In this document: positions 3,607 through 56,802 of the stretch, piece by piece | How positions within the stretch are numbered: position 1 is the stretch's first letter | How the letters are laid out: each line of letters opens with the position of its first letter | From: a virus | Lineage: Duplodnaviria > Heunggongvirae > Uroviricota > Caudoviricetes | Length of the DNA: 64,000 nucleotides | Direction: 5' to 3' (one strand) | IMG/VR virus record: IMGVR_UViG_3300047444_000299 | Coordinates: 1-64,000 of that record | The notes under the pieces: model-generated | Databases searched by the model: none | Told to the model about the DNA's origin: nothing | Seen by the model: only the letters and a program-made list of their open reading frames with translations | Program-made: the position numbers and the translations under genes

Positions 3607-4629
3607 ATGGATCATATAGACCAAGCGTACATCGGGCGGGTTTCCCTCCGATTAGATCAGTTCAAGCAGAAATCACCCGGACGGTACAACTTTAGATGTC
3701 CTATCTGCGGCGACTCGGCTAAGAATAAGTACAAGGCTCGCGCATGGTTCATCGGCCATGATGGTAAGACGTGGTTCAAATGCTTCAACGACGATACATG
3801 CGGGTCCGGTTTTGGATTCTTTCTGAAACGTCATGACCCAGCGCTGTATTCTGAATGGGCTCTTGAGAAATTCAGGGAATATGGTAACGGCAAGCGTCAA
3901 AGCTCGGTCCAAGAAGCCAAGCCGGTACGTCATATGGGTGATCCAGAATTGGTTCACGATTTACCGACGATTGCAAGCCTGCCACATGATCATTTTGCAC
4001 GGGCTTATATCGAAGACCGGAAGTTACCAACGCATTGGCTAGAAAAGTTGTATTTCTGTGAAAGCTGGAAAGAACTGACTAACCAATTTGAGCCGGATAC
4101 ATACAAAACAATCAAATCTGAGGAAGCTCGGATTGTGATTCCCGCTTACAACGAGAAGCGGGAATTGATCTGCTTTCAAGGTCGGAGTCTCGACCCAGAT
4201 GTGGATGAAAAGAAATACCTAACCGTCAAGGTTCAAGATTGCCTCAAAATCTGGGGCATGGACAAGGCGAAAAAGAATGCGCCGGTATTCCTGTTGGAAG
4301 GTGCATTTGATGCAATGTGTTTAAGCAACACTACGGCGATTCTCGGGGGCACTGCGAACCCTAATGATCTACCGGAAGGGTATGATTGGGTGTTCTCGCT
4401 CGATAATGAGCCGCGAAATGTTTCAGTCCTGCGACGATATCAACAATTGATTGATCGCAAGGCAAAGTTTGTGAACTGGCGTGGATGGCCCTACAAATTC
4501 AAAGATGTCAATGAGTGCATCAAGAATGGGATATCCGCCCGTGAGATTCAGCGTTATTTTGAATCAAATATTGTGTCCGGGCTACAAGCTCAACTTGAAT
4601 TTAATCTTTGGAAGAAAGCACCTTTATGA
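3607..4629 (+). CDS. 61: DNA primase (T4 gp61 family; Zn-ribbon + TOPRIM)
   Basis: N-terminal RCPICGDS..KARAW zinc-binding motif typical of gp61; position after helicase. Confidence 0.85.
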   Translation: MDHIDQAYIGRVSLRLDQFKQKSPGRYNFRCPICGDSAKNKYKARAWFIGHDGKTWFKCFNDDTCGSGFGFFLKRHDPALYSEWALEKFREYGNGKRQSSVQEAKPVRHMGDPELVHDLPTIASLPHDHFARAYIEDRKLPTHWLEKLYFCESWKELTNQFEPDTYKTIKSEEARIVIPAYNEKRELICFQGRSLDPDVDEKKYLTVKVQDCLKIWGMDKAKKNAPVFLLEGAFDAMCLSNTTAILGGTANPNDLPEGYDWVFSLDNEPRNVSVLRRYQQLIDRKAKFVNWRGWPYKFKDVNECIKNGISAREIQRYFESNIVSGLQAQLEFNLWKKAPL

Positions 4630-5893: not shown

Positions 5894-7720
5894 ATGAGCT
5901 TCAAGATTCTAGATGATAAGGCCCATATCCTGCTACGACCGGGAATGTACTGCGGATCGGTGGTTGAAGAAACCCAATCCTTGTTCCTGAATTATCAGTG
6001 GACAAGCGCGAAATTCGTACCGGGTCTGTTCAAGATCATCAACGAACTGATTGACAACTCAATCGATGAACACATTCGAACCAATGGCGAATTTGCCAAT
6101 GCGATTGATATCAAGGTCGATGCCAAAAGCTTTTGGATCAAAGACAATGGCCGGGGTATCCCTGTTGTCCTAGTCGATGACCTAGACGGCGAGAAAATCT
6201 ATACCCCTGTAGCCGCGTGGTGTAAAACCAAGGCTGGATCGAACTTCGGATCTGATACAGACCGGGATACAATCGGTATGAACGGTGTGGGTTCGGCACT
6301 GGCTAACATATTCAGTTCCAAATTCATAGGTACAACCTCAGACGGCAAAATGCATCTGGTGGTGACATGTGAAGACAACGCGACAATTCGTGATGTGTCG
6401 GTGAAGAAATCGACCAAGAAATTCACAGAGGTGTATATCGAACCAGATTTCCCACGGTTCGGTGTTACAGAAATTGATACAACCCTTATTGATTTGATCA
6501 AATCCCGATTGATCAATTTGGCGATTTGCTACCCGGCGATTACTTTCAAGTTGAATGGTGAATCGATCAAGACCGGATCAGCAAAGGCGTGGGTAGACAA
6601 GTTCGCCCCTGAAAACGTTCTACACCACGATGATTCCATCATTCTCGGGTTCATGAATTCTACGGATGAAGAATTCCGTTGCCTATCACTGGTCAACGGC
6701 TTGAACATCAGTCAAGGTGGTACGCATATTGATTACGTCTTGGGTCAAATCTGTGATGTTCTGCGGGATTTGATCAAAAAGAAACACAAGCTCGAAGTTA
6801 CCCCCGGTCAGATTAAGAGCCATCTACAAGTGGTGTCTGTGATCCGTGGTATGAAGAACATGAAATTCGATTCTCAGACCAAGGAACGAATCACCAACCC
6901 GCGTGGTGAAGTATCTGGTTTGTTTGCGAATGTCAAGTTTGACAAGCTGGCTCAGGGCATCATGAAAAATGATGCATTGATTCTGCCGATCATTCAGGCA
7001 CAGCTAGCCAAACAAATGGCGGCTGATGCTCGGGCGGCGACTCTGGCTGAAAAGGCTTTGCAAGCCAAGAAGGTTGCAAAACACATCCCCGCTACAAGCC
7101 GTAAGGCGAGCGAGAAGACCCTATTCATCACAGAAGGCGACTCTGCTATTGGCCCGTTCATTTCGGCCCGTACACAGGATCTGGCAAAGATTTACGGTGG
7201 GTATCCACTGCGCGGTAAGATTCCAAACATTACCGACATGACCACCACTGAAATTCTGAAAACCAAAGAGCTTGGCGATTTGATCAATATCCTTGGGTTG
7301 AAAATTGGTCAGAAAGCAGACGAACCAGATTACGGTACGATTGCGATCATGACTGACCAAGATATCGATGGATTCTCGATTCAAGGTTTGCTGTTGAACT
7401 TCTTTTGGCTTTGGCCGGAACTGTATCAAAAGAATAGAATCAAAATTGTTCGCACGCCTCTTTACGTGGCAACCAAGAAAGATGAACGGAAATATTTCTA
7501 TGACAAGGCTGATTACGAAGCCGCATCTAGCGGTTTGAAAGGCTATGAAATCCGATACATCAAAGGTCTTGGTTCGCTGCGGAAAACTGAGTACAAAGAC
7601 ATTCTGGCAAACCCAGTGATGATTACTGTACAGATTGATGACCCTGTACTATTTGATGCAATGTATGGCTCATACAATAAATTTGGTGATGCCCGTAAGA
7701 AATTAATTGGTGACGTATGA
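5894..7720 (+). CDS. 39: DNA topoisomerase II large subunit (GyrB-like ATPase + TOPRIM; T4 gp39 family)
   Basis: N-terminal ILLRPGMYCGS, GHKL ATPase and TOPRIM motifs; 608 aa. Confidence 0.9.
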   Translation: MSFKILDDKAHILLRPGMYCGSVVEETQSLFLNYQWTSAKFVPGLFKIINELIDNSIDEHIRTNGEFANAIDIKVDAKSFWIKDNGRGIPVVLVDDLDGEKIYTPVAAWCKTKAGSNFGSDTDRDTIGMNGVGSALANIFSSKFIGTTSDGKMHLVVTCEDNATIRDVSVKKSTKKFTEVYIEPDFPRFGVTEIDTTLIDLIKSRLINLAICYPAITFKLNGESIKTGSAKAWVDKFAPENVLHHDDSIILGFMNSTDEEFRCLSLVNGLNISQGGTHIDYVLGQICDVLRDLIKKKHKLEVTPGQIKSHLQVVSVIRGMKNMKFDSQTKERITNPRGEVSGLFANVKFDKLAQGIMKNDALILPIIQAQLAKQMAADARAATLAEKALQAKKVAKHIPATSRKASEKTLFITEGDSAIGPFISARTQDLAKIYGGYPLRGKIPNITDMTTTEILKTKELGDLINILGLKIGQKADEPDYGTIAIMTDQDIDGFSIQGLLLNFFWLWPELYQKNRIKIVRTPLYVATKKDERKYFYDKADYEAASSGLKGYEIRYIKGLGSLRKTEYKDILANPVMITVQIDDPVLFDAMYGSYNKFGDARKKLIGDV

Positions 7721-9015
7721 CCGAAACTACATTAAGTCAATTTGCTGCTGGCCCTTGGCGCGATTTCTCCCTGTACACAATCAGCGAGCGGGCTATCCCA
7801 TCGCTGATTGACGGGTTCAAACCATCACAGCGATTCATTATGTATTCCGCGTTTAAGAATGCATCAAATCGCTGGCTCAAGGTGTCGTCATTGGCGGCGA
7901 TTGCTGAATACGGCTATCACCACGGCGATGCAGCCGCACAGGAAACCGCTCAAAAGATGGCTGCGGATTGGTCGAACAACCAACCATGCCTGCTTGGCGA
8001 CGGTAACTTTGGCGACCGACTGGTTCAAGAGCCGTCAGCCCCTCGGTATGTGTTCGCACAGGTTCACCCGATGGTTCAAAAGCTGTTCAAAGACAACGAT
8101 CTTTGTCCAGCTCATGAAGACCCGGAACACATCCCACCGAAATACTACCTGCCAATCATCCCGATGGTTTTGGTCAATGGTGTTTCCGGGGTTGCAACTG
8201 GGTATGCGACGGACATCCCACCGTATGCATTAAATGATGTAAAAAACCTTTGCATCAAATATGTACAGGGTAAGGACATCGATTCAATTGATGTAATCCC
8301 GACATTCTACGGCTTCAAGGGTAAGATCGAACGTAACCCAAAAGGTGGGTTTGATCAGGTTGGTATTATCGAACTGAAAGGTAAGACTACCGCCATCATC
8401 AGTGAAGTACCGTTCAAGTACGACCGGGTGAAATACATCGCGGTTCTAGACGAGCTGCAAGAAAACGGGCTGATCCTGCGTTACGACGAGGATTGCGGCG
8501 ACCACGGCTTTAGATTCATTGTGGATTTGAAGCGTGGATTTGATACAAAGTCGAACGAAGAATTGATCAAATTGTTCAAGCTGCGTTCGTCTTTCACAGA
8601 AAACCTTACGGTACTGGATCAGGATCGTAAGCTGCGGAAATTCAGTGGGCCGCATGAGGTTGTTAGGGAGTTTTGCGACTTCCGTTTGCCATTCTATTCC
8701 GATAGGATCGCAAAGCAATTGGCGGAATCGGAACATAATTTCAAGGTAGCGGTTGCAAAGATCAAGTTTATCGGTATGATCCTCGACCAGAAGCTTGATT
8801 TTAAAGGGAAAACTAAAGCGGCACTCACAAAGGAGTTGACCGCTACCTTCGATAAGGATATTGTTCCGAGTCTATTAGGAATGGAATTCTACTCGCTGAC
8901 CAAGGATGAAATTGTAGTCCAGATGGGCAAGGCGAAAGCCCTTGACTCAAAACGGAATTACTGGAAAAATGCGACCCCTGCTGGGTTGTTCATAGAAGAT
9001 TTGGAACAGATTTAA
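7717..9015 (+). CDS. 52: DNA topoisomerase II medium subunit (GyrA-like; T4 gp52 family)
   Basis: GyrA-like N-terminus (SERAIPSLIDGFKPSQRFI); overlaps stop of gp39-like gene. Confidence 0.85.
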   Translation: MTETTLSQFAAGPWRDFSLYTISERAIPSLIDGFKPSQRFIMYSAFKNASNRWLKVSSLAAIAEYGYHHGDAAAQETAQKMAADWSNNQPCLLGDGNFGDRLVQEPSAPRYVFAQVHPMVQKLFKDNDLCPAHEDPEHIPPKYYLPIIPMVLVNGVSGVATGYATDIPPYALNDVKNLCIKYVQGKDIDSIDVIPTFYGFKGKIERNPKGGFDQVGIIELKGKTTAIISEVPFKYDRVKYIAVLDELQENGLILRYDEDCGDHGFRFIVDLKRGFDTKSNEELIKLFKLRSSFTENLTVLDQDRKLRKFSGPHEVVREFCDFRLPFYSDRIAKQLAESEHNFKVAVAKIKFIGMILDQKLDFKGKTKAALTKELTATFDKDIVPSLLGMEFYSLTKDEIVVQMGKAKALDSKRNYWKNATPAGLFIEDLEQI

Positions 9016-10457: not shown

Positions 10458-10789
10458 CCACACGAAGTCGTCTGGGGCCGATTGTAGATGAGCCCCGGAA
10501 AAAGTACCGGATCAAACTTGTACCCGGTGCTGATAAGTTGACGTTCAATCGCTTGGTGCGTTATGACCCGGTTGAAAACTATTATATCCCAATATATGAG
10601 ACGGTAACCATCCCAGATGGTGAAGTGATCGATTACTTCCTTACAGAAGACTCGGAATCAAATCCCGTGCATCTGTTCGCTCGTCAATTTGATACAAGGC
10701 TGTTTGTCTTGACTCAAGACGTGGTGGACGGTGCTGTACTGGAACCCGGTAAGGGTAATAACCAGCATTTATGGCTACAAGAAATTTAA
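10454..10789 (+). CDS. hypothetical protein
   Basis: 111 aa ORF, overlapping stop/start. Confidence 0.45.
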   Translation: MTTRSRLGPIVDEPRKKYRIKLVPGADKLTFNRLVRYDPVENYYIPIYETVTIPDGEVIDYFLTEDSESNPVHLFARQFDTRLFVLTQDVVDGAVLEPGKGNNQHLWLQEI

Positions 10790-10806
10790 TCAAATTCGGA
10801 GTTTGT

Positions 10807-11940
10807 ATGTCCACCAACCCATTCCAGCTTTATGATCAATTGATGCAATTGACCTTGATCGGTGATGCATTCTTCTTCAAAGACTTCCCAGCGGACGACC
10901 CGGAACGTATGTATCGGATCTTTAACTACCGACTGGCTAGCTATTCGGATTTCTGCAAACCCGGTGCGCTGGAATGTCGTGGAACGATGTTTCTGGTAGA
11001 TCGCAAAGGCAACTTTGACGATCTGGTTTGCCGACCACCGAAGAAATTTTTCAATCTGGGTGAAAACCCATTCACGATGGAATTGCCGCTGGATGATTTG
11101 GCAATGTGCATGGTCAAGGAAGACGGTTCGTTGATGTCTACCTACTTGCACACCAACGGCGAATTGCGTCTGAAATCGAAAGGTTCTACCGGATCGGTTC
11201 AATGTAATGATGCAATGGCGTTCCTCAAGACCCAACCGGCCCTGCTGGCGGATCTGCGGTTCCTCGCAGCCCGTGACTTTACGGTCAATCTGGAATGGTG
11301 CGCGCCGTGGAACCGTATCGTGGTTGGCTATCAGCAACCGAAACTGATCGGTCTGAGCATCATCGACAATCACACCGGTACTGTTTACGGACAAGACCTG
11401 ATTGATGATTTGGGTCTGGCTGGGGTTGACGATATCTGGGTTGAAGAATTCCAGTACACCGGCTTGTTGGCGGCTGCAATCAACAACCTGACAGGCACCG
11501 AAGGCGTTGTAGCCCTGACCAAACAAGGGGTTTACTTCAAAATGAAATGCCCGTGGTATCTGGCGTTGCACCGTAACAAGGACAACGTACAGAACACCAG
11601 AGCGTTGATCGAACTGATCCTTTCAGAACAGATTGATGACCTCAAGGTTCTGTTCTCGGACGACCCAGCGGTATTGAACAAAATCAATGCTTACGAAAAA
11701 AGTATCAGTTCTGTTTATAACCATACCTGTTCTGTGGTAGAATCATTTCATGACCGCAACAAGGATCTGTCTCAAAAAGACTACGCCATTGCTGCGAAGG
11801 CTGAATATTCCGATTGGGTGTTTAACATCCAAATGTCCAGATTTGTTGGGCGTGACTGGGAAACTCAGGCCAAAGAGTTCATGCAAAAGAACTATTCCAA
11901 TTATATCTTGAAAGAATTTGAGAGTTCGTCTGGTGAATAA
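10807..11940 (+). CDS. rnlA: RNA ligase 1 (T4 Rnl1 / gp63 family)
   Basis: strong similarity to T4 Rnl1 (YRIFNYRLASYSDFCKPGALECRGTMF, KFFNLGENPFTM, KEDGSL nucleotidyltransferase lysine motif); GGAG SD 7 nt upstream. Confidence 0.9.
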   Translation: MSTNPFQLYDQLMQLTLIGDAFFFKDFPADDPERMYRIFNYRLASYSDFCKPGALECRGTMFLVDRKGNFDDLVCRPPKKFFNLGENPFTMELPLDDLAMCMVKEDGSLMSTYLHTNGELRLKSKGSTGSVQCNDAMAFLKTQPALLADLRFLAARDFTVNLEWCAPWNRIVVGYQQPKLIGLSIIDNHTGTVYGQDLIDDLGLAGVDDIWVEEFQYTGLLAAAINNLTGTEGVVALTKQGVYFKMKCPWYLALHRNKDNVQNTRALIELILSEQIDDLKVLFSDDPAVLNKINAYEKSISSVYNHTCSVVESFHDRNKDLSQKDYAIAAKAEYSDWVFNIQMSRFVGRDWETQAKEFMQKNYSNYILKEFESSSGE

Positions 11941-12550
11941 ATTGATCGTCGGTGGCGGTATCTATGAAAAGGGTCGCCACGAAGCATGGGACGCTAAGAG
12001 TAAGCGGAACACCAAAGAATATGAAACTTGGTATGGGTTCCTCAAGCGGTGTTCGGCTGCCATCCAAGCCACTGGAAAATTCAAATCCTATGTGGGATGT
12101 TCGGTTCATCCAGATTTTATCAAATTCCAAGACTTCGCGGAATGGTGCCAACATCAAATCGGATTTGGTAATGACGGCTGGGCATTGGATAAGGATATTC
12201 TGGTGCGGGGTAACAAGGTCTACGGACCTGATACCTGTGTGTTTGTGCCATCGGAATTGAATAGTCTGTTGACCCATGTACAGTCAACCAAAGGGGATCT
12301 ACCAACCGGTGTTTCTATAAAACCTATACGGGTTCCGAAATACAAGACCGATTATGATAAAACCCCAGTTTACAAGGCTCAAATTATGATCAGTGGGGCG
12401 GTGACATTCCTTGGATATTTTGATACCCCAGAAGCCGCCGAAGCTGTTTATAAAGTGGCCAAAACCAAAGAAATTCGTAGACGGGCTGAACTTGTGAAAG
12501 ATCAAATTGACCCACGGGCGTATAACGCATTGATGAATTATGTAGTTTAA
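11933..12550 (+). CDS. homing-endonuclease-like protein (degenerate HNH-like core + AP2 DNA-binding domain)
   Basis: GIYEKG..YxxW...FQDFAEW..WALDKDIL..YGPDTCVFVPSELN core and C-terminal AP2-like YKAQIMISGAVTFLGYFDTPEAAEAVY; non-ATG start; paralog at 45811. Confidence 0.5.
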   Translation: MNKLIVGGGIYEKGRHEAWDAKSKRNTKEYETWYGFLKRCSAAIQATGKFKSYVGCSVHPDFIKFQDFAEWCQHQIGFGNDGWALDKDILVRGNKVYGPDTCVFVPSELNSLLTHVQSTKGDLPTGVSIKPIRVPKYKTDYDKTPVYKAQIMISGAVTFLGYFDTPEAAEAVYKVAKTKEIRRRAELVKDQIDPRAYNALMNYVV

Positions 12551-12558
12551 GGAATATT

Positions 12559-13425
12559 GTGAGTAAATTAGTATTGACAATCGGGGTTCCCGGAAGTGGG
12601 AAGTCTACCCTTGCGCATAAATTTGTGTCGCAAGGGTATGTACAGGTCGAGCGAGACTTGTTGCGTAAAAAGTTCTACGGAACTTGGTATTCAAAAGGTG
12701 TTGATGAAAAACGCATCACCCACGCTCATGAAGAATTAATTCGTAATGCTTTGCGTAGTAACCTGAATGTATTTGTATCAGATACAAACATCAATCCAGT
12801 TACCCGCGAACATTTGATCAAATTTGGATCTAGCCTTGGTGCTGAAATCCAGTTGATCCACGTTGCACCTTACATGCTGCTTGATGATTTGATCCAACGC
12901 AATGCAAATCGCGATGATCAAACTAAAGTGGTTCCTGTAGGTGTGATGCAGCAAATGTATACCAGTTATCGGGAACAGTTTCCGATCATGGCCCCGGCTT
13001 ATGATTCATTGAAACAAGATGCGTTCTTGTTTGATTTGGATGGTACGGTTGCGGAAATGAATGGGATTCGCGGACCATTTGATTGGAAAAAGGTTGGAAT
13101 GGACGATGCACATTCTGATGTGATTGAAGTCTTGAAAGCTCTTGAAGTTGCTGGTAACAAACTGATCGGTGTATCTGGTCGGGATGAAGTATGCCGAGCT
13201 GAAACTATGGAATGGTTGCTGAAACACAATCTCCCAGAACATGGGCTGTGTATGCGCCCAACCGGATCGCAAATCAAAGATTCTGCTGTAAAACATGATT
13301 TGTATCATCGTTACATCGCACCGTATTACAACGTAAAAGGTGTCTTTGATGATAGGACACAAGTTGTAAAAACGTGGCGTAGCATGGGACTCCGGTGTTA
13401 CCAATGTGCCCCCGGCGACTTTTGA
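12559..13425 (+). CDS. pseT: polynucleotide 5'-kinase/3'-phosphatase (T4 PseT family)
   Basis: P-loop GVPGSGKST, HAD phosphatase motif FLFDLDGTVAEMNG, C-terminal WRSMGLRCYQCAPGDF nearly identical in pattern to T4 Pnk. Confidence 0.9.
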   Translation: MSKLVLTIGVPGSGKSTLAHKFVSQGYVQVERDLLRKKFYGTWYSKGVDEKRITHAHEELIRNALRSNLNVFVSDTNINPVTREHLIKFGSSLGAEIQLIHVAPYMLLDDLIQRNANRDDQTKVVPVGVMQQMYTSYREQFPIMAPAYDSLKQDAFLFDLDGTVAEMNGIRGPFDWKKVGMDDAHSDVIEVLKALEVAGNKLIGVSGRDEVCRAETMEWLLKHNLPEHGLCMRPTGSQIKDSAVKHDLYHRYIAPYYNVKGVFDDRTQVVKTWRSMGLRCYQCAPGDF

Positions 13426-13450
13426 TAAAAATATTTTAGAAATTTGTTAG

Positions 13451-13492
13451 AAATCTCCTACTAGATCGCTAAATAGATATAGAAGGAGATTT
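13451..13492 (+). promoter_or_regulatory. stem-loop sequestering the RBS of the GIY-YIG gene
   Basis: 8-bp inverted repeat AAATCTCC...GGAGATTT; 3' arm contains the AAGGAG SD 8 nt before ATG 13496. Confidence 0.5.
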
Positions 13493-13495
13493 TTA

Positions 13496-14197
13496 ATGAA
13501 CGAACATTATTGCTTATATCAAATTACAAACCTAATCAACGGTAAGATTTATGTTGGCGTCCACAAGACTGCTGACCCGCTAGATGGATATTTAGGATCT
13601 GGCCCATTAATACGAAAGGCTGTCGCGAAATATGGTCGTGAAAATTTCAGAAAAGATATTCTGGAAACTTATGAGGATTATGAATCCTTAAATCGCGCAG
13701 AAGCTGAAATCGTAACCAGAGAATTTATTGAACGTCCTGATACATATAACCTTGATTTGGGTGGTCGTGGTGGGAAGATTTTTACCGAAGATATGAAATC
13801 AAAAATTTCACAGTCTCAAAAAGATAGGTTTAAATCGAACCCAGACGCATGGAACACAGACATACGCCGCGTGGCTCAACGTAAGTATTTGGATTCCTTA
13901 ACCAAAGAAGATTATATAAGGATGTTTAGCAAACCGGGTGAATCAAATCCTATGTATGGGATTCCATGTCATTACAAAATGACAGATTCTGAGCGAGCTA
14001 ATTGGGCTGCCAATATTTCCGCTGCCAATAAAGGCAAGAAGCGAACCGATGCGCAAAAACAGAATTATTCTGACTACGCCAAACAGCGTTTTTGGATTGT
14101 GAATCAAAATGGTACGTGCGCTCATTGTCTGGATATTAATGATCCACGATTACTGGGTGGTGAATGGCAACGTGGTAAAAAGTGGAAAACTGTATGA
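13496..14197 (+). CDS. GIY-YIG homing endonuclease (Seg/I-TevI-like) with NUMOD3 repeats
   Basis: N-terminal YCLYQITNLINGKIYVGVH...GYLGSG (GIY-YIG), NUMOD3-like SERANWAANISAANKGKK. Confidence 0.8.
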   Translation: MNEHYCLYQITNLINGKIYVGVHKTADPLDGYLGSGPLIRKAVAKYGRENFRKDILETYEDYESLNRAEAEIVTREFIERPDTYNLDLGGRGGKIFTEDMKSKISQSQKDRFKSNPDAWNTDIRRVAQRKYLDSLTKEDYIRMFSKPGESNPMYGIPCHYKMTDSERANWAANISAANKGKKRTDAQKQNYSDYAKQRFWIVNQNGTCAHCLDINDPRLLGGEWQRGKKWKTV

Positions 14198-14442
14198 CTG
14201 ATAAGAAATTGTTCCAATTGGTTGCTAAGACCAAGCCTCAAGAAAAGATGACCCCAGAAATGAAAGCGGCTCTTGATGAAATGTATCAAGAGATTCTTAC
14301 AGGGGATGTTGATTTCATTATGGCAACAGGGGATTCTAACGGCGAAGACCCAGTTGGTTTTATTACCAATCTGGATACTGCGGGATCTAACCTGATGCTT
14401 GATCAAATGAAATTGGGCATTCTCATGGGCCAGATTGATTGA
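14194..14442 (+). CDS. hypothetical protein
   Basis: ATGA overlap with endonuclease stop; 82 aa. Confidence 0.4.
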   Translation: MTDKKLFQLVAKTKPQEKMTPEMKAALDEMYQEILTGDVDFIMATGDSNGEDPVGFITNLDTAGSNLMLDQMKLGILMGQID

Positions 14443-14768
14443 GAACCCTAACCGTGATTTTTGATGTGGTGTCGGTTTCATCGCCGTTCACCTCGTCAAG
14501 AATTACTCGGTATTACCAAGATACCCCAGAATCGGTGTTTGATATTATTCATGATTACCTAAAACTGTTCTTCAAAAATACAGGAATTGGGTATGTGGAT
14601 ATCGGTATCCGAGCTGATAGGGGTGCTTTCTCGAAGACATCCATGCAGAGGATTCGAGATATTATTGTGGAAAAAATTCTTGGTTATGCCGATGGCGATT
14701 TACCACTAACACAACTTCAACAATCGTTGTTATTCGACCGGTTAGAATCTGGTCGTCCAAAGAAATAA
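14439..14768 (+). CDS. hypothetical protein
   Basis: 109 aa ORF, non-ATG start; weak. Confidence 0.3.
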   Translation: MRTLTVIFDVVSVSSPFTSSRITRYYQDTPESVFDIIHDYLKLFFKNTGIGYVDIGIRADRGAFSKTSMQRIRDIIVEKILGYADGDLPLTQLQQSLLFDRLESGRPKK

Positions 14769-14778
14769 AGGATCTATT

Positions 14779-15822
14779 GTGAGCGAATTTGTTAAATATT
14801 CTTCCATCGAAAACTCTTACCAGCAACGTTTCCTCGACAAATGCGCTATGCATGTCGGGGATGCACAGATGGTTGCGGTGGAGAAAATCCACGGTGCCAA
14901 CTTTTCGTGGATTGCTGACGGGACATCTGTTCGGGTAGCCAGTCGTAACGATTTGATCGATGAATTGGAAACCTTCTACGGCCATACCCGGTTCTTCAAT
15001 CGGTACACACCGGTTGTAAAAGCTCTGTATGGTCTGGCTAAGAACGAGTTCCCCGGATTGGTTCAAATCAATCTGTTCGGTGAAATTTTCGGTGGTCGGT
15101 ATAATGGCGAATGCGCTCAGTCTGCCAAGAAAGTTCAAGATGGTGTGAACTACCATCCTGATAACGAATTCATGGCATTTGACCTGAAACTGACATTCGA
15201 TACCGGTGTGAGCCGTTATGTTCCATTCGTGGACTTGATCGATCTGCTATTTGATGCAAACTTCATCGCTCGGTTGCCGTTCGCAGACCGTATGCGTCAT
15301 GCGCCGGTTATCAAAATTGGTACTCTGGAAGAACTGATCAAAATTGATCCATTGTTCTATACCCACGTACCACAAGCATACGGACTCGAAACTGAATACC
15401 GTGAAAAGACTCCACTTGACTACGCGGAAGGTTTTGTGATCTGCGGGTATGAAGAAGACTTCTACATCGGCAACGAGCGTGTGATTCTGAAACAGAAAAA
15501 CGCCTTGTACGGTGAAAAAGTTAAAGAAGTCAAGATCAAATCGGCGGTGAACCTGTCGGAAGCCCAACAAGCCCTGCTGGATAAGGTTTGTTCGTACATG
15601 AACGAGAACCGCGTAAATGCAGTTCTATCAAAAGGTGTGTATGACCAGAAGTCGTTCGGCAGGCTGCAAGGCGATTTCACCCGTGATGCACTGGAAGACT
15701 TCGAGAAAGACGAGGGCTACCGGGCACAGGACTCCGAAGAATGGAATGTTCTGGGTAAACGTGTCGGTTCCCATGCGGCTCAGGTAATCAAGCCGGTTTG
15801 GATCAATCTCGATTTTTCGTAA
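14779..15822 (+). CDS. rnlB: RNA ligase 2 (T4 Rnl2 / gp24.1 family)
   Basis: N-terminus KYSSIENSY..VAVEKIHGANFS matches the Rnl2 KxHGxN adenylyltransferase motif; GTG start. Confidence 0.85.
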   Translation: MSEFVKYSSIENSYQQRFLDKCAMHVGDAQMVAVEKIHGANFSWIADGTSVRVASRNDLIDELETFYGHTRFFNRYTPVVKALYGLAKNEFPGLVQINLFGEIFGGRYNGECAQSAKKVQDGVNYHPDNEFMAFDLKLTFDTGVSRYVPFVDLIDLLFDANFIARLPFADRMRHAPVIKIGTLEELIKIDPLFYTHVPQAYGLETEYREKTPLDYAEGFVICGYEEDFYIGNERVILKQKNALYGEKVKEVKIKSAVNLSEAQQALLDKVCSYMNENRVNAVLSKGVYDQKSFGRLQGDFTRDALEDFEKDEGYRAQDSEEWNVLGKRVGSHAAQVIKPVWINLDFS

Positions 15823-15867
15823 TTGATGTAATCCTCCTAGGTAAATATGTCTAGGAGGACATCACTA

Positions 15868-16353
15868 ATGTCAAATTTTGAAAAAGCAATTAAAATTGTT
15901 CTGGCCCATGAAGGTGGGTATGTCAACAATCCGGCTGATCCGGGTGGTGAAACCAATTTTGGGATTACCAAACGAACCTACCCGAATGTAGATATCAAGA
16001 ATCTAACGGTAGACGGTGCAAAAGCCATCTATCTACGCGATTGGTGGCAGCCGAATGGTTATGATTCCATCATTAACGACGACGCGGCAACCAAGATTTT
16101 TGATACCGCCGTCAACGTCGGCAGCAAACGAGCATATCGATTCGCACAACAAGCCATGAATAAACAGGGTAAAGGTCTACAGGAAGACGGGGTGTTTGGG
16201 GTAGCTTCTATTACCGCACTGAATGCTTCCGATCCTGTACGATTCCTAGCCGATTTCCGTTCGATTCAAGCTGATTACTATAAAGGACTGGTAGCGGCCA
16301 AGCCGTCTCTATCTGTTTTCCTACGCGGTTGGCTGGCTCGGGCACAATCTTAA
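15868..16353 (+). CDS. GH108-family lysozyme-like protein with peptidoglycan-binding domain
   Basis: AHEGGYVNNPADPGGETNFGITKRTY motif (GH108) and PG_binding_3-like C-terminus; GGAGG SD. Confidence 0.75.
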   Translation: MSNFEKAIKIVLAHEGGYVNNPADPGGETNFGITKRTYPNVDIKNLTVDGAKAIYLRDWWQPNGYDSIINDDAATKIFDTAVNVGSKRAYRFAQQAMNKQGKGLQEDGVFGVASITALNASDPVRFLADFRSIQADYYKGLVAAKPSLSVFLRGWLARAQS

Positions 16354-16360
16354 AATAATC

Positions 16361-16400
16361 GAAACAGAATGTTGACACCCGTGTTTCATTCTGTTTTAAT
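16361..16400 (+). promoter_or_regulatory. sigma70-like promoter (TTGACA-N17-TTTAAT) embedded in a 10-bp inverted repeat AAACAGAATG/CATTCTGTTT
   Basis: perfect 10-bp inverted repeat whose loop contains TTGACA; lies upstream of natV. Confidence 0.45.
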
Positions 16401-16424
16401 GGCCACACATTGAGGGGATCAAGC

Positions 16425-17495
16425 GTGAGCAAAGTTAAAAAGTACGACCTAGCGGTTTTTATCGGGCGAATGGCACCACTGCATAATGCCCATCTGGAAA
16501 ACATTCAATTGGCAGATTCGATTGCTGATCGCGTTGTTGTGATTCTCGGCGGTGCTAACGCTCCGCGTGATGAACGAAATCCATTCAGTAACCAAGACCG
16601 TTCTCGAATGGTCGAAGCTGCAACCAGTGAAGCCGGGATCAAAGGTGTTGGCCTAGCCTTCATCAATGACAACCCATCCGATGATTTGTGGGCCGCTGAA
16701 ATCATGCGTCTGGCAAATCGTTACATTATGGGCATAGAGGCTCCGCGAATCGCAATCGTTGGGCACAAGAAAGATGATAGTTCATTCTATCTCGATTTGT
16801 TCCCAACGTGGGAATTCGTAGAAACCGGCGCAAAGATGCATGGCGACGAAGAAATGGCGGCAACATCAATCCGCAAACTGATGTTTGAGGATAATTTCGA
16901 ACCTGCCATGTACATGATGCCAGCATCTGTATACAACTACGTCAATTACGAATTCATCGGCTCCCCAGAGTATGATGCAATCCGTGAAGAATACATGTTC
17001 CACCAAGCTTACCCAGCAAAACGCCGTGCGTCTTACCCGATCAACGACGTTACCGCTGATGCTGTTGTTCTGTGCAAAAGCCACATCCTGTTGATTCGCC
17101 GTAAAAACATTCCCGGTAAAGGCAAACTGGCCCTACCCGGTGGATTCGTCAACACCAACGAAACGGTTGAAGACGGCGCGATTCGTGAACTGGATGAAGA
17201 AACAAAACTGCATGTACCTGAAAAGGTGTTGCGCAAGTCGATCATTGACGAAAAGCGGTTCGATAATCCGAAACGTTCCCTTCGCGGTCGGCTGATGACC
17301 TTCGCATTTACTTTCAAGATTGATACAAATCATGACGGTAGCTTGCCACGGGTTTACGGTTCCGATGACGCTGATAAGGCGTTCTGGGTTCCAATCTCGG
17401 ATATCTCGGCCCCTGAAAACGCGGCTGACTTTTTCGAAGACCACCACAACATCATCATGACCATGATCGGTCGTGCTGCGAAACAACAAAACTAA
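16425..17495 (+). CDS. natV: bifunctional NMN adenylyltransferase / Nudix hydrolase (NatV-like)
   Basis: N-terminal cytidylyltransferase motif (LAVFIGRMAPLHNAH), C-terminal Nudix box (GGFVNTNETVEDGAIRELDEET); GTG start with GAGGGGA SD. Confidence 0.85.
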   Translation: MSKVKKYDLAVFIGRMAPLHNAHLENIQLADSIADRVVVILGGANAPRDERNPFSNQDRSRMVEAATSEAGIKGVGLAFINDNPSDDLWAAEIMRLANRYIMGIEAPRIAIVGHKKDDSSFYLDLFPTWEFVETGAKMHGDEEMAATSIRKLMFEDNFEPAMYMMPASVYNYVNYEFIGSPEYDAIREEYMFHQAYPAKRRASYPINDVTADAVVLCKSHILLIRRKNIPGKGKLALPGGFVNTNETVEDGAIRELDEETKLHVPEKVLRKSIIDEKRFDNPKRSLRGRLMTFAFTFKIDTNHDGSLPRVYGSDDADKAFWVPISDISAPENAADFFEDHHNIIMTMIGRAAKQQN

Positions 17496-17520
17496 TTCAA
17501 TTTTCGAGGAGTTCGAAAGA

Positions 17521-19014
17521 ATGACAGCTTTCAATACAGAGTTTAACAAAGACAACGCAATCCTGATGGATTTCAACCCGGATAACCTGATCCTGAAATC
17601 CGATTCATACAAAGGTGGTCACTGGGAAATGCTCCCGGCTGGCGCTCAGTACCTGTATTCCTACGGGGAATCGCGTGGATCTGATCAATACGCTGTACGT
17701 GGTGTCAACGAAGGTTACACCTACACAGTTTTCCACGGTCTGCAAGGTATTCTGAAACGTCACTTCTCTAGTCGCCTGACTATGAAAGATGTTGATGAAG
17801 CCGAAGAACTGGTAGAGCTGCATATGGGACCGGGCGTTTTCAACCGTAAAGGTTGGGAACAGATTGTTACCCAGTTCAAAGGTAAACTGCCACTGCGTAT
17901 CCGCTGCCTGAAAGAAGGTACGGTTGTTCCTACCGGCAACGTTCTGTGGACTGTTGAAAACACCCACCCGGACTTTGCATGGTTGGTTTCGTACTTCGAA
18001 CCGCTGTTCCTGCAAGCGTGGTATCCAATTACGGTTGCTTCTGTTTCGTACAGCATCCGTCAAGTGGTAGAACAAGCTTTCCGTCAGTCGGTTGACGAAG
18101 GTGTTGGTAGCCAATTCAAGCTTCACGATTTCGGCTATCGCGGTGTATCCAGTAACGAATCGGCCCGTATTGGTGGTGCTGCTCACTTGGTGGCCGGTTG
18201 GATGGGTAGCGATACCATTCAGGCTGTTATCGAACTGAAAATGCACTACGGCGTGAAGAAAGGCGAAATGCCTGCCTTCTCGGTTCGTGCAACGGAACAC
18301 AGTGTTGTGTGTGCAAACTCCAACGCTGACACCCGCGACGATTCCAACGCTCTGGAAATGGCGATCCAACTGCTGGAGAAACACAAGGGCATCGTAGCCT
18401 GTGTGGGTGATACCTATAGCATTCGCCGTTTCGCGGAATGGTGTGCAACCGATCCGATCAAAACCCGAATCATCAATTCCGGTGGTACGTTTGTACTGCG
18501 CCCAGACTCTGGCAACCCGCTGGAAATTCCGGTCGAAATCATCGGTATCCTGATGGCTGGGTTTGGTTACACCGTGAACAGCAAAGGCTACAAAGTCCTG
18601 CCGAGCTGCATCCGAGTTCTGCAAGGCGACGGTATCAACGAATCCAGCATTCGTGGCATCTACGACAATATGTTCAAAAAGTCGCGTATGTACTCTGCTG
18701 ATAACATCGTTTTCGGTATGGGCGGCGCCCTGCTGCAACACTGCGACCGTGATTGGCTCAAATTTGCCATGAAAGCGGCTGCACTGTGCAAAAACGGCAT
18801 CTGGACTGACCTGTTCAAAGACCCGGACACCGATTCAGTTAAACGGTCGAAGAAAGGTCGAGTGACCACGTTCAAAGATTCGAGTGGGAAATACTTCTCG
18901 GATCGTATCGAACTGCAAGAAACCAATCACACAATCGTTGACCAACTGGTTACGGTGTGGGAAGACGGCGACCACATTATGCAGTGGGCGTTTAGCGAAA
19001 TCCGCATCCCGTAA
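17521..19014 (+). CDS. nadV: nicotinamide phosphoribosyltransferase (NAMPT, NadV-like)
   Basis: NAMPT motifs (LKSDSYKGGHW, FGYRGVSS, GSDT); 498 aa; GAGGAG SD. Confidence 0.9.
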   Translation: MTAFNTEFNKDNAILMDFNPDNLILKSDSYKGGHWEMLPAGAQYLYSYGESRGSDQYAVRGVNEGYTYTVFHGLQGILKRHFSSRLTMKDVDEAEELVELHMGPGVFNRKGWEQIVTQFKGKLPLRIRCLKEGTVVPTGNVLWTVENTHPDFAWLVSYFEPLFLQAWYPITVASVSYSIRQVVEQAFRQSVDEGVGSQFKLHDFGYRGVSSNESARIGGAAHLVAGWMGSDTIQAVIELKMHYGVKKGEMPAFSVRATEHSVVCANSNADTRDDSNALEMAIQLLEKHKGIVACVGDTYSIRRFAEWCATDPIKTRIINSGGTFVLRPDSGNPLEIPVEIIGILMAGFGYTVNSKGYKVLPSCIRVLQGDGINESSIRGIYDNMFKKSRMYSADNIVFGMGGALLQHCDRDWLKFAMKAAALCKNGIWTDLFKDPDTDSVKRSKKGRVTTFKDSSGKYFSDRIELQETNHTIVDQLVTVWEDGDHIMQWAFSEIRIP

Positions 19015-19030
19015 TTGATGTAAATAAAAA

Positions 19031-19052
19031 GGAGCCGAAAGGCTCCTTTTTT
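19031..19052 (+). terminator. rho-independent terminator
   Basis: GGAGCC-GAAA-GGCTCC followed by TTTTTT. Confidence 0.8.
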
Positions 19053-19053
19053 G

Positions 19054-19082
19054 TTTAGAATGAATCGAAACTGTGATATGAT
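19054..19082 (+). promoter_or_regulatory. sigma70-like early promoter TTTAGA-N17-TATGAT
   Basis: matches the recurrent (ctg)TTTAGA-N17-TAtaAT pattern of this region. Confidence 0.5.
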
Positions 19083-19106
19083 TCTGTTTCTAATGAGGAA
19101 TTAAGA

Positions 19107-19307
19107 ATGTACGACGAAACCGATGACAGCCTCCCGTTCAACTCTAGTTCGGAATTCAACGAGCGTAAGTTTCAATTCATTTTGAACTACTGCCTTGCCG
19201 AACGTACCAGTGGTAATGGCTCAGACATGGGATATGCCCACAACCGAAACGATTTGGTTGAAGCTGCGAGTAGCTTGTATGAAAAAGCCCTCGAAATCTG
19301 TCAGTGA
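19107..19307 (+). CDS. hypothetical protein
   Basis: 66 aa ORF downstream of promoter. Confidence 0.4.
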   Translation: MYDETDDSLPFNSSSEFNERKFQFILNYCLAERTSGNGSDMGYAHNRNDLVEAASSLYEKALEICQ

Positions 19308-19320
19308 GCCTGACGGCTTG

Positions 19321-19512
19321 ATGGCTGGGAAGGTAATCAAAATCACCCCACACGTCCCATTTTACAAACAGAATGGGTGTTCTGTCACGAAAGAGTGGCA
19401 AGAAAACTTTACAGATCGAATCGGAAACAAAGCAATCCTGACTCATTGTGAGTACACGGATAAGAAAGGCAAAATTCATACCTGTGTTATCCGGGTAAAG
19501 TGGAGTAATTGA
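19321..19512 (+). CDS. hypothetical protein
   Basis: internal ATG chosen to avoid overlap; 63 aa. Confidence 0.3.
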   Translation: MAGKVIKITPHVPFYKQNGCSVTKEWQENFTDRIGNKAILTHCEYTDKKGKIHTCVIRVKWSN

Positions 19513-20321
19513 TGGAATTCAGACTGATTTCTGATACACATTTAGAATGGTATGCATCCTTTGCGATGCCGTCACTGCCACACATCAACGGTGACAAGGA
19601 ACGTGTGTTGGTCATCGCCGGGGATTTCCATACCCTGAAACGGGCTGAGAACGTTGCACCCCTGTTGACTGAATACGGCCAGAGATTCAAGGCGGTTGTG
19701 TACGTTCCGGGGAATCACGAATACTACGGCAGCGTAATCAAACCGATGTCCAACCTGTTCAATTTCCAGAAAATGAACCCGGAAGGCTTGGATAACATCC
19801 ACTTCCTGATTCGTGACTCTATCGTAATTGATGGAATTCGTTTCGTCGGGGCCACGCTCTGGACTGACATGAATGATCGCGACCCTATCGCGGAATATCA
19901 ATTGAGTACCGGAATGAACGATTTCCGGGTGATTGATTACCATGATGAAAAGTTTGATCATTATGGTAAGTTCAAGGCGCGGCACTGGCAAGCCGAGCAT
20001 CACAAGGATTTGACGTATATCGCAGAGGAAGTTGGTAATTCGATGGAACCCTGTGTGGTTGTGACACACCATCCACCAAGTGCCCGTAGTCTCGACCCAA
20101 AGTTTGCAGATGCATCAAATTACTACATGAACTACGGCTATCACTCGGTATTGGACGAATTCATTCTGGATCGCCCTAGCATCAAATTCTGGTGCCACGG
20201 CCACGTTCATATCGTTCATGACTACATGATTGGTGACACCAATGTCATTTGCAACCCGTATGGCTACCCTGATCAAGACGACACAGGGTTTCTCGAAAAA
20301 AGTTTTTACAGAATTCATTGA
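19512..20321 (+). CDS. calcineurin-like metallophosphoesterase (CpdA/Icc-like phosphodiesterase)
   Basis: MPP motifs DTHLE, AGDF, GNHEYYG, TLWTD..., VVTHHPP, HGHVH; 270 aa, the size of cAMP phosphodiesterase CpdA. Confidence 0.7.
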   Translation: MEFRLISDTHLEWYASFAMPSLPHINGDKERVLVIAGDFHTLKRAENVAPLLTEYGQRFKAVVYVPGNHEYYGSVIKPMSNLFNFQKMNPEGLDNIHFLIRDSIVIDGIRFVGATLWTDMNDRDPIAEYQLSTGMNDFRVIDYHDEKFDHYGKFKARHWQAEHHKDLTYIAEEVGNSMEPCVVVTHHPPSARSLDPKFADASNYYMNYGYHSVLDEFILDRPSIKFWCHGHVHIVHDYMIGDTNVICNPYGYPDQDDTGFLEKSFYRIH

Positions 20322-26849: not shown

Positions 26850-26878
26850 TTTGTAATTCTGTTTCGGTATGGTATTAT
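26850..26878 (+). promoter_or_regulatory. sigma70-like promoter TTTGTA-N17-TATTAT within inverted repeat TTCTGTTT/AAACAGAA
   Basis: pattern as in other early promoters here. Confidence 0.4.
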
Positions 26879-26908
26879 GGTCGTACCAAAACAGAATGGG
26901 TGTCGGTA

Positions 26909-34403: not shown

Positions 34404-34677
34404 CGATTGCTGGGAATTCCAATTATTCGTAGAAGAACATTCGTTCGACGGTGGCATTGACATTTTCGAACGAATCGGTGATGCGTGTTGGAATGACGGC
34501 AAAGTGGATGGTGTTTCCATCAATAGCAGTTCGTCCTACGGGCCGGAAACTCCGGGTGGTGAATACTATGGTGATTTTGAAATAGGTGATGAAACTTTTA
34601 GCTTCCACCTTGAATCATCAAATAGACGCGGTGATGTAATGCACTCATGGGAACGGCATGTATACGACGAATCTTGA
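34393..34677 (+). CDS. hypothetical acidic protein
   Basis: TTG start with GGTGGA SD (ATG alternative at 34339). Confidence 0.3.
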   Translation: MVSDDCWEFQLFVEEHSFDGGIDIFERIGDACWNDGKVDGVSINSSSSYGPETPGGEYYGDFEIGDETFSFHLESSNRRGDVMHSWERHVYDES

Positions 34678-46388: not shown

Positions 46389-46865
46389 ATGAACAAAAAG
46401 AACATCGCTGTCGCCCTTTGCTTCGAAAACATCAGTACCTTGATGAACGGCCAATTTGAATCAATGGAAGAAGTATTGAAGGATGTCAAGGACGCTATTG
46501 CTGGTTTGGATGAACCCGCCAATGGTGATTTAGGCGAGCTGACATTGGTGATGATTTCCGCCCAAGATGATGAAACCCAAGATACCATCGATGAAGCCAA
46601 TCTACTGGGGCAAATCCTTGAGCATTGGTTCGGCCCATCCTTGGCTAAACTCGCCATGTCCGGTAATGTCGAAGTTGGTATGACGGTGTATCTGTATAAT
46701 CCGGGTCAGGCTGGAATCGTCGGACGGGTGATTGACTTTGATACCGAAACCTGTGACGAACCTTATATTGGGGTTGAATGGTTGAATGAAGACGGGGATG
46801 TTATCGCTGGTAGTGCTGGTGGCCCGGAAATGTTTACATCGGTATTTGATTACCCTATGCTGTAA
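46389..46865 (+). CDS. hypothetical acidic protein
   Basis: 158 aa. Confidence 0.45.
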   Translation: MNKKNIAVALCFENISTLMNGQFESMEEVLKDVKDAIAGLDEPANGDLGELTLVMISAQDDETQDTIDEANLLGQILEHWFGPSLAKLAMSGNVEVGMTVYLYNPGQAGIVGRVIDFDTETCDEPYIGVEWLNEDGDVIAGSAGGPEMFTSVFDYPML

Positions 46866-53015: not shown

Positions 53016-53092
53016 TTAATTGATGTAAAGGGTTTGACATTTGATGCAAACCCTTTATACTGATCATACACCAACCGAAACAGGATTTGATC
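53016..53092 (+). promoter_or_regulatory. PeSL-like cassette
   Basis: as above. Confidence 0.55.
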
Positions 53093-54602: not shown

Positions 54603-54677
54603 ATCAAAATAGGGGTTTGCAATTTGATGCAAACCCCTATAGAATGATCTTACACCAACCAAATAGAGGGTTTGAAC
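54603..54677 (+). promoter_or_regulatory. PeSL-like cassette
   Basis: as above. Confidence 0.55.
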
Positions 54678-56725: not shown

Positions 56726-56802
56726 AAATTTGATAAAAAGGGTTTGCAATTTGATGCAAACCCTTTATACTGATCATACACCAACCGAAACGAGTAACCA
56801 TC
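56726..56802 (+). promoter_or_regulatory. PeSL-like cassette
   Basis: as above. Confidence 0.55.

Follow-up and report, generated by a model that had tools for sequence, protein, structure and literature searches.

How is a phage operon for rebuilding NAD+ expressed when the candidate promoter in front of it lies within an inverted repeat? This question is raised by a 64,000-nucleotide stretch of DNA (positions 1 to 64,000 of IMG/VR virus record IMGVR_UViG_3300047444_000299; below, the window), in which an element at 16361–16409 precedes natV and nadV, two genes that, judged from their sequences, make up NARP2, the KVP40-type Nampt plus Nmnat NAD+ pathway, a gene content that is already known. 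An earlier note on this DNA had taken the repeat for the operator of a repressor or for a 5′ hairpin of the transcript. As set out below, neither interpretation agrees well with the element and its relatives; instead, we consider it probable that the element is a composite cassette of the promoter-early stem-loop (PeSL) type placed before the NARP2 operon, in which a host σ70-type promoter (TTGACA, N17 with a TG extension, TTTAAT) would be nested within a stem-loop.

A candidate promoter nested within a stem-loop upstream of natV

The anatomy of the element can be read directly and bears out the previously described perfect 10-bp inverted repeat, with TTGACA-N17-TTTAAT in its loop and 3′ arm, apart from small shifts in coordinates. 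Its parts are as follows:

16361–16397, plus strand: stem-loop by RNA folding, with a G·U pair (16361/16397), ten perfect pairs and a small inner helix, GACA/UGUU, in the loop
16362–16371, plus strand: 5′ arm, AAACAGAATG, which includes the lineage word AAACAGAAT
16372–16377, plus strand: −35 hexamer TTGACA, at the start of the 15-nt loop; TTGACA, TTGCAT or TTGCAA at the same place in relatives
16387–16396, plus strand: 3′ arm, CATTCTGTTT, the last two T residues of which are the start of the −10 hexamer; TTCTGTT is invariant in all element-bearing relatives
16392–16393, plus strand: TG at −15/−14 (extended −10 position), within the 3′ arm
16395–16400, plus strand: −10 hexamer TTTAAT (TTCAAT in some relatives), 17 nt after the −35 hexamer and without an A at −11
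16403–16409, plus strand: start region CCACACA, with a predicted transcription start near 16407

The element is intergenic, lying between the stop codon of a GH108 lysozyme gene (16353) and the Shine-Dalgarno sequence of natV (16412). Directly 3′ of TTTAAT follow GGCCACACA, then GAGGGG (16412–16417) and the GTG start codon of natV at 16425. When folded as RNA, the stem-loop has a predicted energy of −14.3 kcal/mol, with a z-score of −3.1 on the plus strand as compared to −0.7 on the minus strand.

The hexamers and their spacing had been described correctly before, but the TG dinucleotide at the extended −10 position had been overlooked. With −35 TTGACA, a 17-bp spacer and TG at −15/−14, the element is similar to E. 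coli trp-type/extended −10 σ70 promoters, a likeness that is a resemblance in sequence only. The −10 hexamer of the E. coli trp promoter, TTAACT, likewise has a T at position 2. A σ70-type promoter before natV-nadV is plausible; our consensus scan demands an A at position 2 of the −10 hexamer and hence omits it. The earlier statement that this is the only plausible promoter is fair as far as the intergenic region is concerned. Two nearby alternatives, TTGGCT-16-TAAAAT (16329–16356; not conserved in the related locus L003) and ATGTCA-17-TAAAAT (15868), are weaker, each with nine of 12 matches, and both lie inside the GH108 coding sequence. We also rejected assignment of the element to the class II promoters of this genome (TGTTTA-N19-TAnnnT; see below), as there is no −10 hexamer at the needed distance, and to the T4 late promoters, as a match to TATAAATA is absent at the element.

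A transcription start near 16407 is inferred from the position of the −10 hexamer, and the start region was called at 16403–16409 because the same G(A/G)CCACACA follows the −10 hexamers of early cassettes that are repeated at 47–64 kb of the window. Such a start would lie 10 nt past the 3′ arm, so that the hairpin would be outside the RNA made from this promoter and could form only in read-through RNA, which argues against a 5′ hairpin of the operon's own transcript. Among other functions considered for the hairpin, an RNase III site was dismissed as the helix is too short (11 + 4 bp), and translational control was dismissed as the hairpin ends 15 nt short of the Shine-Dalgarno sequence and does not overlap it. 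An Rfam scan of the region from 13 to 21 kb returned nothing above any gathering score.

Stem pairing is maintained among related loci

We read 16 related loci, plus one duplicate locus from another sample. Most of the relatives came from exact-protein look-ups; a metagenome scan and a profile scan of viral contigs yielded one new relative, L125. As MAFFT/RNAalifold misaligned the variable inner part of the stem, inner pairs were counted by a script anchored on the invariant cores.

The element is present in 12 loci (nine distinct sequences), in which NatV identity ranges from 68 to 100%, and absent from four (Astolliot, L136, L137 and L138). In Astolliot, L136 and L137, 8 nt separate the flanks TAATAATC and TTGAGGGGATCAA where the window has about 49 nt. 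In L132, a different gene lies upstream, and the cassette is still found with natV. All but one of the 12 element-bearing loci share the order (A)AACAGAA, −35 hexamer in the loop, TTCTGTT, TT(T/C)AAT 17 nt after the −35 hexamer, and ACACA. The same hairpin was predicted in all 11 loci that were folded, and in nine of these the plus-strand fold was more stable than the minus-strand fold.

The outer seven pairs of the stem are invariant, except in L125, the 5′ arm of which has decayed. Further up the stem, the first inner pair is T:A in seven loci and C:G in four, the second is G:C or C:G, and the third is G:C, A:T, T:A or C:G; one bulged A at the second inner position of L004 and L129 is the sole non-canonical inner position. 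These directly observed patterns of conservation and compensatory change suggest that the stem is under two layers of constraint, with the sequence of its outer part fixed, its inner pairs co-varying and pairing under selection. They bear on the idea that the element is a neutral dispersed repeat or recombination scar, left over from cassette shuffling and without a regulatory role of its own. Such a remnant would fit the presence/absence polymorphism between clades, the clean indel boundaries and the behavior of PeSLs as recombination substrates. However, at least four independent both-sided substitutions preserve pairing in the stem, and the element persists down to 68% NatV identity. We consider a purely neutral element highly unlikely.

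The same comparison speaks to the operator for a repressor that had been proposed. The centre-to-centre spacing of the two cores in orthologous elements is 17, 26, 27, 28 or 30 bp, and the word in the arms occurs elsewhere in both orientations, at odds with the fixed spacing and orientation of two half-sites that would mark a dimeric operator. Given this spacing range of 17–30 bp, the occurrence of both orientations and the selection on pairing, a symmetric dimer operator of fixed geometry appears unlikely. The compensatory changes in the inner stem and a promoter-less hairpin in one relative, L134, likewise disfavor a repressor operator.

L134 (2447–2470) contains a bare hairpin, AAACAGAACCC-TTCG-GGGTTCTGTT, which has a C(UUCG)G cap and no −35 hexamer, −10 hexamer or U-run, and which provides the clearest hint of an RNA-level role for the stem-loop itself. 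It might be that only the hairpin matters, as an RNA processing, stability or protein-binding element of a polycistronic RNA, and that the hexamers are unused, natV-nadV being expressed by read-through from upstream alone, as has to be the case in Astolliot and L134. The lack of the −11 A in the −10 hexamer and the preference for the plus-strand fold would agree with this explanation, as would the four relatives without a cassette and the one with the hairpin alone, all of which keep the operon and the same Shine-Dalgarno sequence. Yet 11 of the 12 element-bearing loci keep a −35 hexamer with five or six of six matches exactly 17 nt before TG-n-TT(T/C)AAT despite turnover of the loop, the CCACACA start region matches that of about 20 repeated early cassettes, and the promoter of L125 survives loss of the 5′ arm. 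We regard a hairpin with idle promoter hexamers as quite unlikely and retain the PeSL-type cassette as the preferred explanation.

Promoters within inverted repeats recur across the window

The genome-wide recurrence of such arrangements was counted directly. A count of perfect repeats whose arms are 10 bp or longer and whose loops are 3–20 nt gave 12 in the 64-kb window, as compared to 1.0 ± 1.0 in Markov-1 random sequences. As about one such repeat is expected by chance per 64 kb, a single copy would be unremarkable, but as a class these repeats are far more frequent than expected. Seven or more of the 12 contain promoter hexamers (at natV, 50411, 53026, 54609, 56737, 57841 and 63091). Among promoter-like sites, six of 29 have a perfect repeat of at least 8 bp, versus 2.6% of random 60-nt windows.

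Between 47 and 64 kb, about 21 near-identical early cassettes are found, roughly one per small open reading frame (ORF; e.g. 53026–53057, 54609–54640, 56737–56766). They run in the order A/T-rich upstream stretch, TTGCAT or TTGACA, N16–17, TATACT, GACCACACACCAACCGAAAC, Shine-Dalgarno sequence and ATG, and come in two types. Type 1 has direct repeats of TTGCATCAAAT around the −35 hexamer; in type 2, which accounts for roughly half of the copies, the −35 hexamer is inside a AAAGGGGTTGCA...TGCAACCCCTTT hairpin (AAAGGGG...CCCCTTT). The conserved leader GACCACACACCAACCGAAAC followed by a Shine-Dalgarno sequence is common to all early cassettes of both types. Based on the 12 repeats against 1.0 expected, the six of 29 promoters and the roughly 21 early cassettes, a promoter within an inverted repeat is a general design of this genome and not peculiar to natV. 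The promoter-in-repeat that had been noticed at natV is thus real; what had been missed is that the design is genome-wide and has already been described, in the form of PeSL cassettes.

PeSLs of phages RB49/phi1, T4/PST and KVP40/nt-1 combine σ70-like early promoters with stem-loops and fall into five subclasses, according to whether the stem-loop is placed between the −35/−10 boxes, overlaps them or flanks them (Arbiol et al. 2010, PMC2839356; Comeau et al. 2014, PMC4122927). Their stem sequences are lineage-specific, their promoter and terminator activities have been demonstrated, they adjoin indels and act as recombination substrates, and degraded half-copies are known (PMC2839356; PMC4122927). 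Like these, the natV element is intergenic in a T4-like genome with many copies per genome and a lineage-specific stem sequence, its stable stem-loop overlaps the promoter boxes, it lies at an indel boundary between relatives (being absent in four, and with the upstream gene replaced in L132), and degraded "half" copies exist, here in L125 and L134. On the basis of sequence alone, every sequence-level feature of the PeSL description appears to be present at natV.

There are also differences. The natV stem word, AACAGAA/TTCTGTT, is A/T-rich and weak, whereas PeSL stems are of the Gn/Cn or A3–4G3/C3T3–4 kind; it is the cassettes at 47–64 kb that, with AAAGGGG/CCCCTTT, resemble PeSL stems, and this part of the window looks like a PeSL-rich hyperplastic region. 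At natV, unlike in PeSLs, the loop contains the −35 hexamer and the 3′ arm also serves as the TG extension. Moreover, the natV cassette fronts a conserved metabolic/anti-defence operon in a core-gene region rather than an ORFan in a hyperplastic region.

A second class of promoter-like sites, class II (TGTTTA(G)-N19-TAnnnT), occurs eight times on the plus strand and not at all on the minus strand of the window, as compared to 0.63 expected. Seven sites are at 2588, 5836, 19052, 20638, 23232, 28402 and 30538 (plus strand); the eighth, at 46831, is not clearly intergenic. The spacer often carries cGGAAAC(A/T)G. Class II may represent the middle-type promoter of this lineage, with a spacing that presumably differs from that of T4 MotA-box promoters.

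Further repeated sequences were noted in the window. The 11-mer TTGCATCAAAT is present in 90 copies at no more than one mismatch (3.6 expected), in both orientations and throughout the window, also inside the coding regions of replication and RNA-repair genes (exact copies at 4305, 7651, 8250, 15249 and 26523). GAAACAG occurs 29 times as compared to 8.1 expected (e.g. at 16361–16367, 30553, 35284, 53077, 54111, 57011, 59547 and 62393) and is common to the 5′ arm at natV, the class II spacer and the transcribed leader of the early cassettes, i.e. to both transcribed and untranscribed positions. According to a rough ORF map, perfect repeats with arms of 10–13 bp at 4138–4165, 7778–7810, 12606–12638 and 34439–34475 lie inside or at the edges of ORFs.

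A lineage word in the stem and its possible reader

ACAGAAT occurs 31 times in the window (9.85 ± 3.15 expected) and the longer AAACAGAAT 16 times (0.95 ± 0.88 expected), in 13 of the 16 cases at intergenic, promoter or gene-boundary positions. Six copies of AAACAGAAT form inverted pairs (825/845, 16362/16388 and 26856/26889); when other copies of the word were considered as hairpin arms, true repeats were found only at 825, 16362 and 26856. The word brackets other promoters in other registers, at 26856–26897 of the window and, in L132, at 5954–5988 and at the promoter following nadV. Most relatives have the word at this post-nadV promoter, at positions that shift between them. The earlier note had placed ACAGAAT/ATTCTGT at six or more other early promoters of the window. 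This count holds, but most of these promoters belong to the different class TGTTTA-N19-TAnnnT, at which several copies of the word sit, and the position of the word relative to the hexamers varies.

Inverted repeats of AAACAGAAT with an arm order opposite to that at natV are found at 825–851, 26856–26897 and, in L132, 5954–5988. The latter two have a −10-like hexamer in the loop, so that transcription would include only one of the two arms. Two leads were dropped: a loose scan of viral contigs with AACAGAA-N12–36-TTCTGTTTYAAT gave 120 matches, mostly due to chance, and a nick-associated motif, reported in a paper in which Astolliot is mentioned, is that of an unrelated phage.

The word could be the stem and homology patch common to a PeSL family, or else the site bound by a lineage-specific factor, and both explanations fit. 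Invariance of the outer stem favors some sequence-specific reader, although part of the invariance of the 3′ arm arises because this arm doubles as the TG extension and the start of the −10 hexamer. One may ask whether a lineage-specific DNA-binding regulator recognizes AACAGAA(T) and so represses or times about 10–13 promoters, including that of NARP2, with two copies of the word at natV. The 17-fold enrichment of AAACAGAAT, with its bias to regulatory positions, would suit such a regulator, as would a 7-bp core that is invariant in intact-stem relatives beside a variable inner stem. The density of AACAGAA, moreover, is high only in the clade with the natV element (0.8–1.7 per kb, as compared to 0–0.5 per kb in the Astolliot clade), the shifts of the word at the post-nadV promoter resemble the turnover typical of binding sites, and regulation would make sense for a NARP2 that is toxic or costly when over-expressed.

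On the other hand, the core spacing at natV varies from 17 to 30 bp and the word is arranged head-to-head at some sites and tail-to-tail at others, which a dimer of one fixed geometry could not accommodate, and the position of the word relative to the −35 and −10 hexamers is inconsistent among sites. Pairing rather than duplex recognition is indicated by the compensatory inner-stem changes and by L134, whose hairpin has a UUCG cap and no promoter, and no candidate reader protein was identified. A regulator of this kind is doubtful in our view. Much the same holds for a broader version, in which a lineage-specific factor reads AACAGAA/TTCTGTT in duplex DNA or else at the base of the hairpin, and NARP2 and about a dozen promoters form a timed regulon; we give this only a minor chance. 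Once the hairpin is folded, the size of its loop would not alter the shape of this base. If there were such a factor, the promoter-in-hairpin would be a switch between read-through or factor binding and initiation, and this switch would limit a pathway that drains phosphoribosyl pyrophosphate (PRPP) and is toxic when over-expressed.

A PeSL-type cassette may insulate the operon

Returning to the PeSL-type cassette, we suggest that the −35 hexamer in the loop, and the 3′ arm that provides the TG and the start of the −10 hexamer, would give natV-nadV a transcription start of its own near 16407. No terminator was found between the upstream Rnl2-GH108 genes and natV, and the stem-loop would form in RNA reading through from these genes. 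There, we infer, the hairpin would most likely attenuate or end the read-through RNA, or protect its 3′ end. As the hairpin is a weak terminator by sequence, attenuation or 3′-end protection seems just as probable as full termination. The operon would then depend for its expression chiefly on its own promoter and less on upstream transcription and, with a strong terminator at 19026–19051 closing the operon, natV-nadV would constitute a self-contained transcriptional module. The arm word AACAGAA/TTCTGTT is dispersed in the regulatory regions of this lineage, much as PeSL stems are in other T4-like phages, and like these it may double as a homology patch for modular recombination.

Several observations weigh against this explanation. 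The −10 hexamer has a T instead of an A at the critical second position and in several relatives, with TTCAAT, matches at only four of six positions, so that any activity of the natV promoter may be low or depend on a factor. As a canonical terminator, the hairpin is poor, with three G-C pairs out of ten, a 15-nt loop and a U-run that is partly in the stem; with these features, the terminator scan does not call it, which suggests a weak terminator at most. In L134, the U-tract is lost altogether; as natV in this relative must be read through the hairpin, this loss fits a hairpin that acts as a weak terminator/attenuator or in 3′-end protection. L125 keeps its promoter without the 5′ arm, indicating that pairing is not indispensable, and phages of the Astolliot clade manage without any cassette. 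In addition, if selection acted on pairing alone, one would not expect the outer 7 bp to be invariant in intact-stem relatives, as they are, and most other copies of the word are single and unable to form hairpins.

The natV-nadV operon encodes a NARP2-type enzyme pair

The operon and its boundaries comprise:

16412–16417, plus strand: Shine-Dalgarno sequence of natV, GAGGGG, kept in all relatives, including those without the element
16425–17495, plus strand: natV, bifunctional nicotinamide mononucleotide (NMN) adenylyltransferase/Nudix hydrolase, 356 amino acids, GTG start; Pfam PF01467 (CTP_transf_like) and PF00293 (NUDIX)
17506–17511, plus strand: Shine-Dalgarno sequence of nadV, GAGGAG
17521–19014, plus strand: nadV, nicotinamide phosphoribosyltransferase (NAMPT), 497 amino acids, ATG start; Pfam PF18127 (NAMPT_N), 4.5e-23, and PF04095 (NAPRTase), 1.6e-38
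19026–19051: intrinsic terminator at the end of the operon, AAAAAGGAGCC-GAAA-GGCTCCTTTTT with a T-run, a perfect repeat; −19.6 kcal/mol, z-score −6.5
19052–19089, plus strand: next cassette, TGTTTAGA (−35 region), N17 and TATGAT (19052–19082), overlapped by ATTCTGTTT (19081–19089)

The enzyme identities are directly supported, and the earlier assignment as a KVP40-type pair of NAMPT (NadV) and bifunctional NMN adenylyltransferase (NMNAT)-Nudix protein (NatV) agrees with Pfam domains, structure matches and active-site residues alike. NatV aligns end to end (residues 6–349 of 356) with the NadM-Nudix structure 2qjo (Synechocystis-type; 3.7e-71), and its HxxH motif (HNAH), T-x-I-R motif and Nudix box residues E246, R254, E255, E258 and E259 are invariant among 17 homologues. 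Residues 21–495 of the 497 of NadV align with Xanthomonas and mammalian NAMPT structures (1e-97 to 1.7e-110), and NadV keeps F193, R196, D219, H247, R311, D313, G353, D354, G383, G384 and R392 (as compared to chain 2gvl_A, native numbering).

In the window, natV precedes nadV with a 25-nt gap that holds GAGGAG, and the two genes adjoin each other in every gene-called relative. At this locus, no Adps (Prs-like) partner is found within the operon or its flanks (GH108, small ORFs and metallophosphatase). A terminator hairpin 3′ of nadV is present in 10 of 10 relatives examined, and also in L144; our consensus scan overlooks the terminator at 19026–19051, probably because the stem was extended through the A/T tracts so that no T-tail remained. 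The cassette at 19052–19089 is predicted to drive a downstream small ORF (ATG at 19107), and the small ORFs downstream of this cassette differ among relatives.

NARP2 of KVP40 (Nampt plus Nmnat) overcomes Thoeris and DSR2, is found in about 1.1% of phages, uses up PRPP and is toxic in E. coli when over-expressed (Osterman et al. 2024, bioRxiv 10.1101/2024.02.11.579819, which also covers earlier KVP40 enzymology). As in KVP40, a NAMPT (PF18127 and PF04095) stands beside a bifunctional NMNAT-Nudix protein (PF01467 and PF00293) with no Adps partner at the locus, and the NAMPT shares about 42% identity with its counterpart in a KVP40-like Vibrio phage. Unlike in KVP40, natV precedes nadV here, the operon is compact and has a cassette and a terminator of its own, and the lineage is that of Pseudomonas phages Astolliot and Milchi.

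Source phage and gene neighborhood

The window carries T4-like core genes, namely those for a gp41-type helicase, a gp61-type primase, both topoisomerase II subunits, RnlA, polynucleotide kinase (PNK) and Rnl2, and by this gene content it is assigned to an uncultured T4-like phage. The host of the lineage is probably Pseudomonas. The closest match to the window is Pseudomonas phage Astolliot, with 74% nucleotide identity across the natV-nadV operon; Astolliot is a 174-kb phage that is reportedly misfiled under Otagovirus. Among isolates, Astolliot, of the clade that lacks the cassette, and Milchi, probably of or near that clade, are the nearest. A JGI metagenome includes contigs, the longest of 183 kb, that encode a 100%-identical NatV. 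The operon belongs to a block of co-oriented genes at 10771–20321:

10771–11940: RnlA
12559–13425: PNK
14779–15822: Rnl2
15847–16353: GH108 lysozyme (stop at 16353)
16425–19014: NARP2 (natV-nadV)
19509–20321: metallophosphatase

RNA-repair genes thus adjoin NAD+-rebuilding genes in one block, with synteny in all relatives. The block may be a counter-defence neighborhood.

Implications for NAD+ rebuilding and cassette evolution in T4-like phages

The natV-nadV operon with its cassette is a tidy and largely ordinary case, in that NARP2 and PeSLs are both already known kinds, and current understanding is not overturned. The remaining puzzle is the outer stem word AACAGAA, which is invariant and over-represented in this lineage alone; with a base that is constrained in sequence and a top that only needs to pair, the natV stem hints at a reader of the stem.

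NARP2 is a recently recognized counter-defence, and little is known of its control by phages. In one uncultured T4-like lineage, the operon appears to have gained a promoter/stem-loop cassette of its own, where sister phages would use read-through, and this clade difference offers a natural comparison for whether insulated expression matters. At the same time, the window would extend the PeSL concept to a new, little-studied lineage with two distinct stem words.

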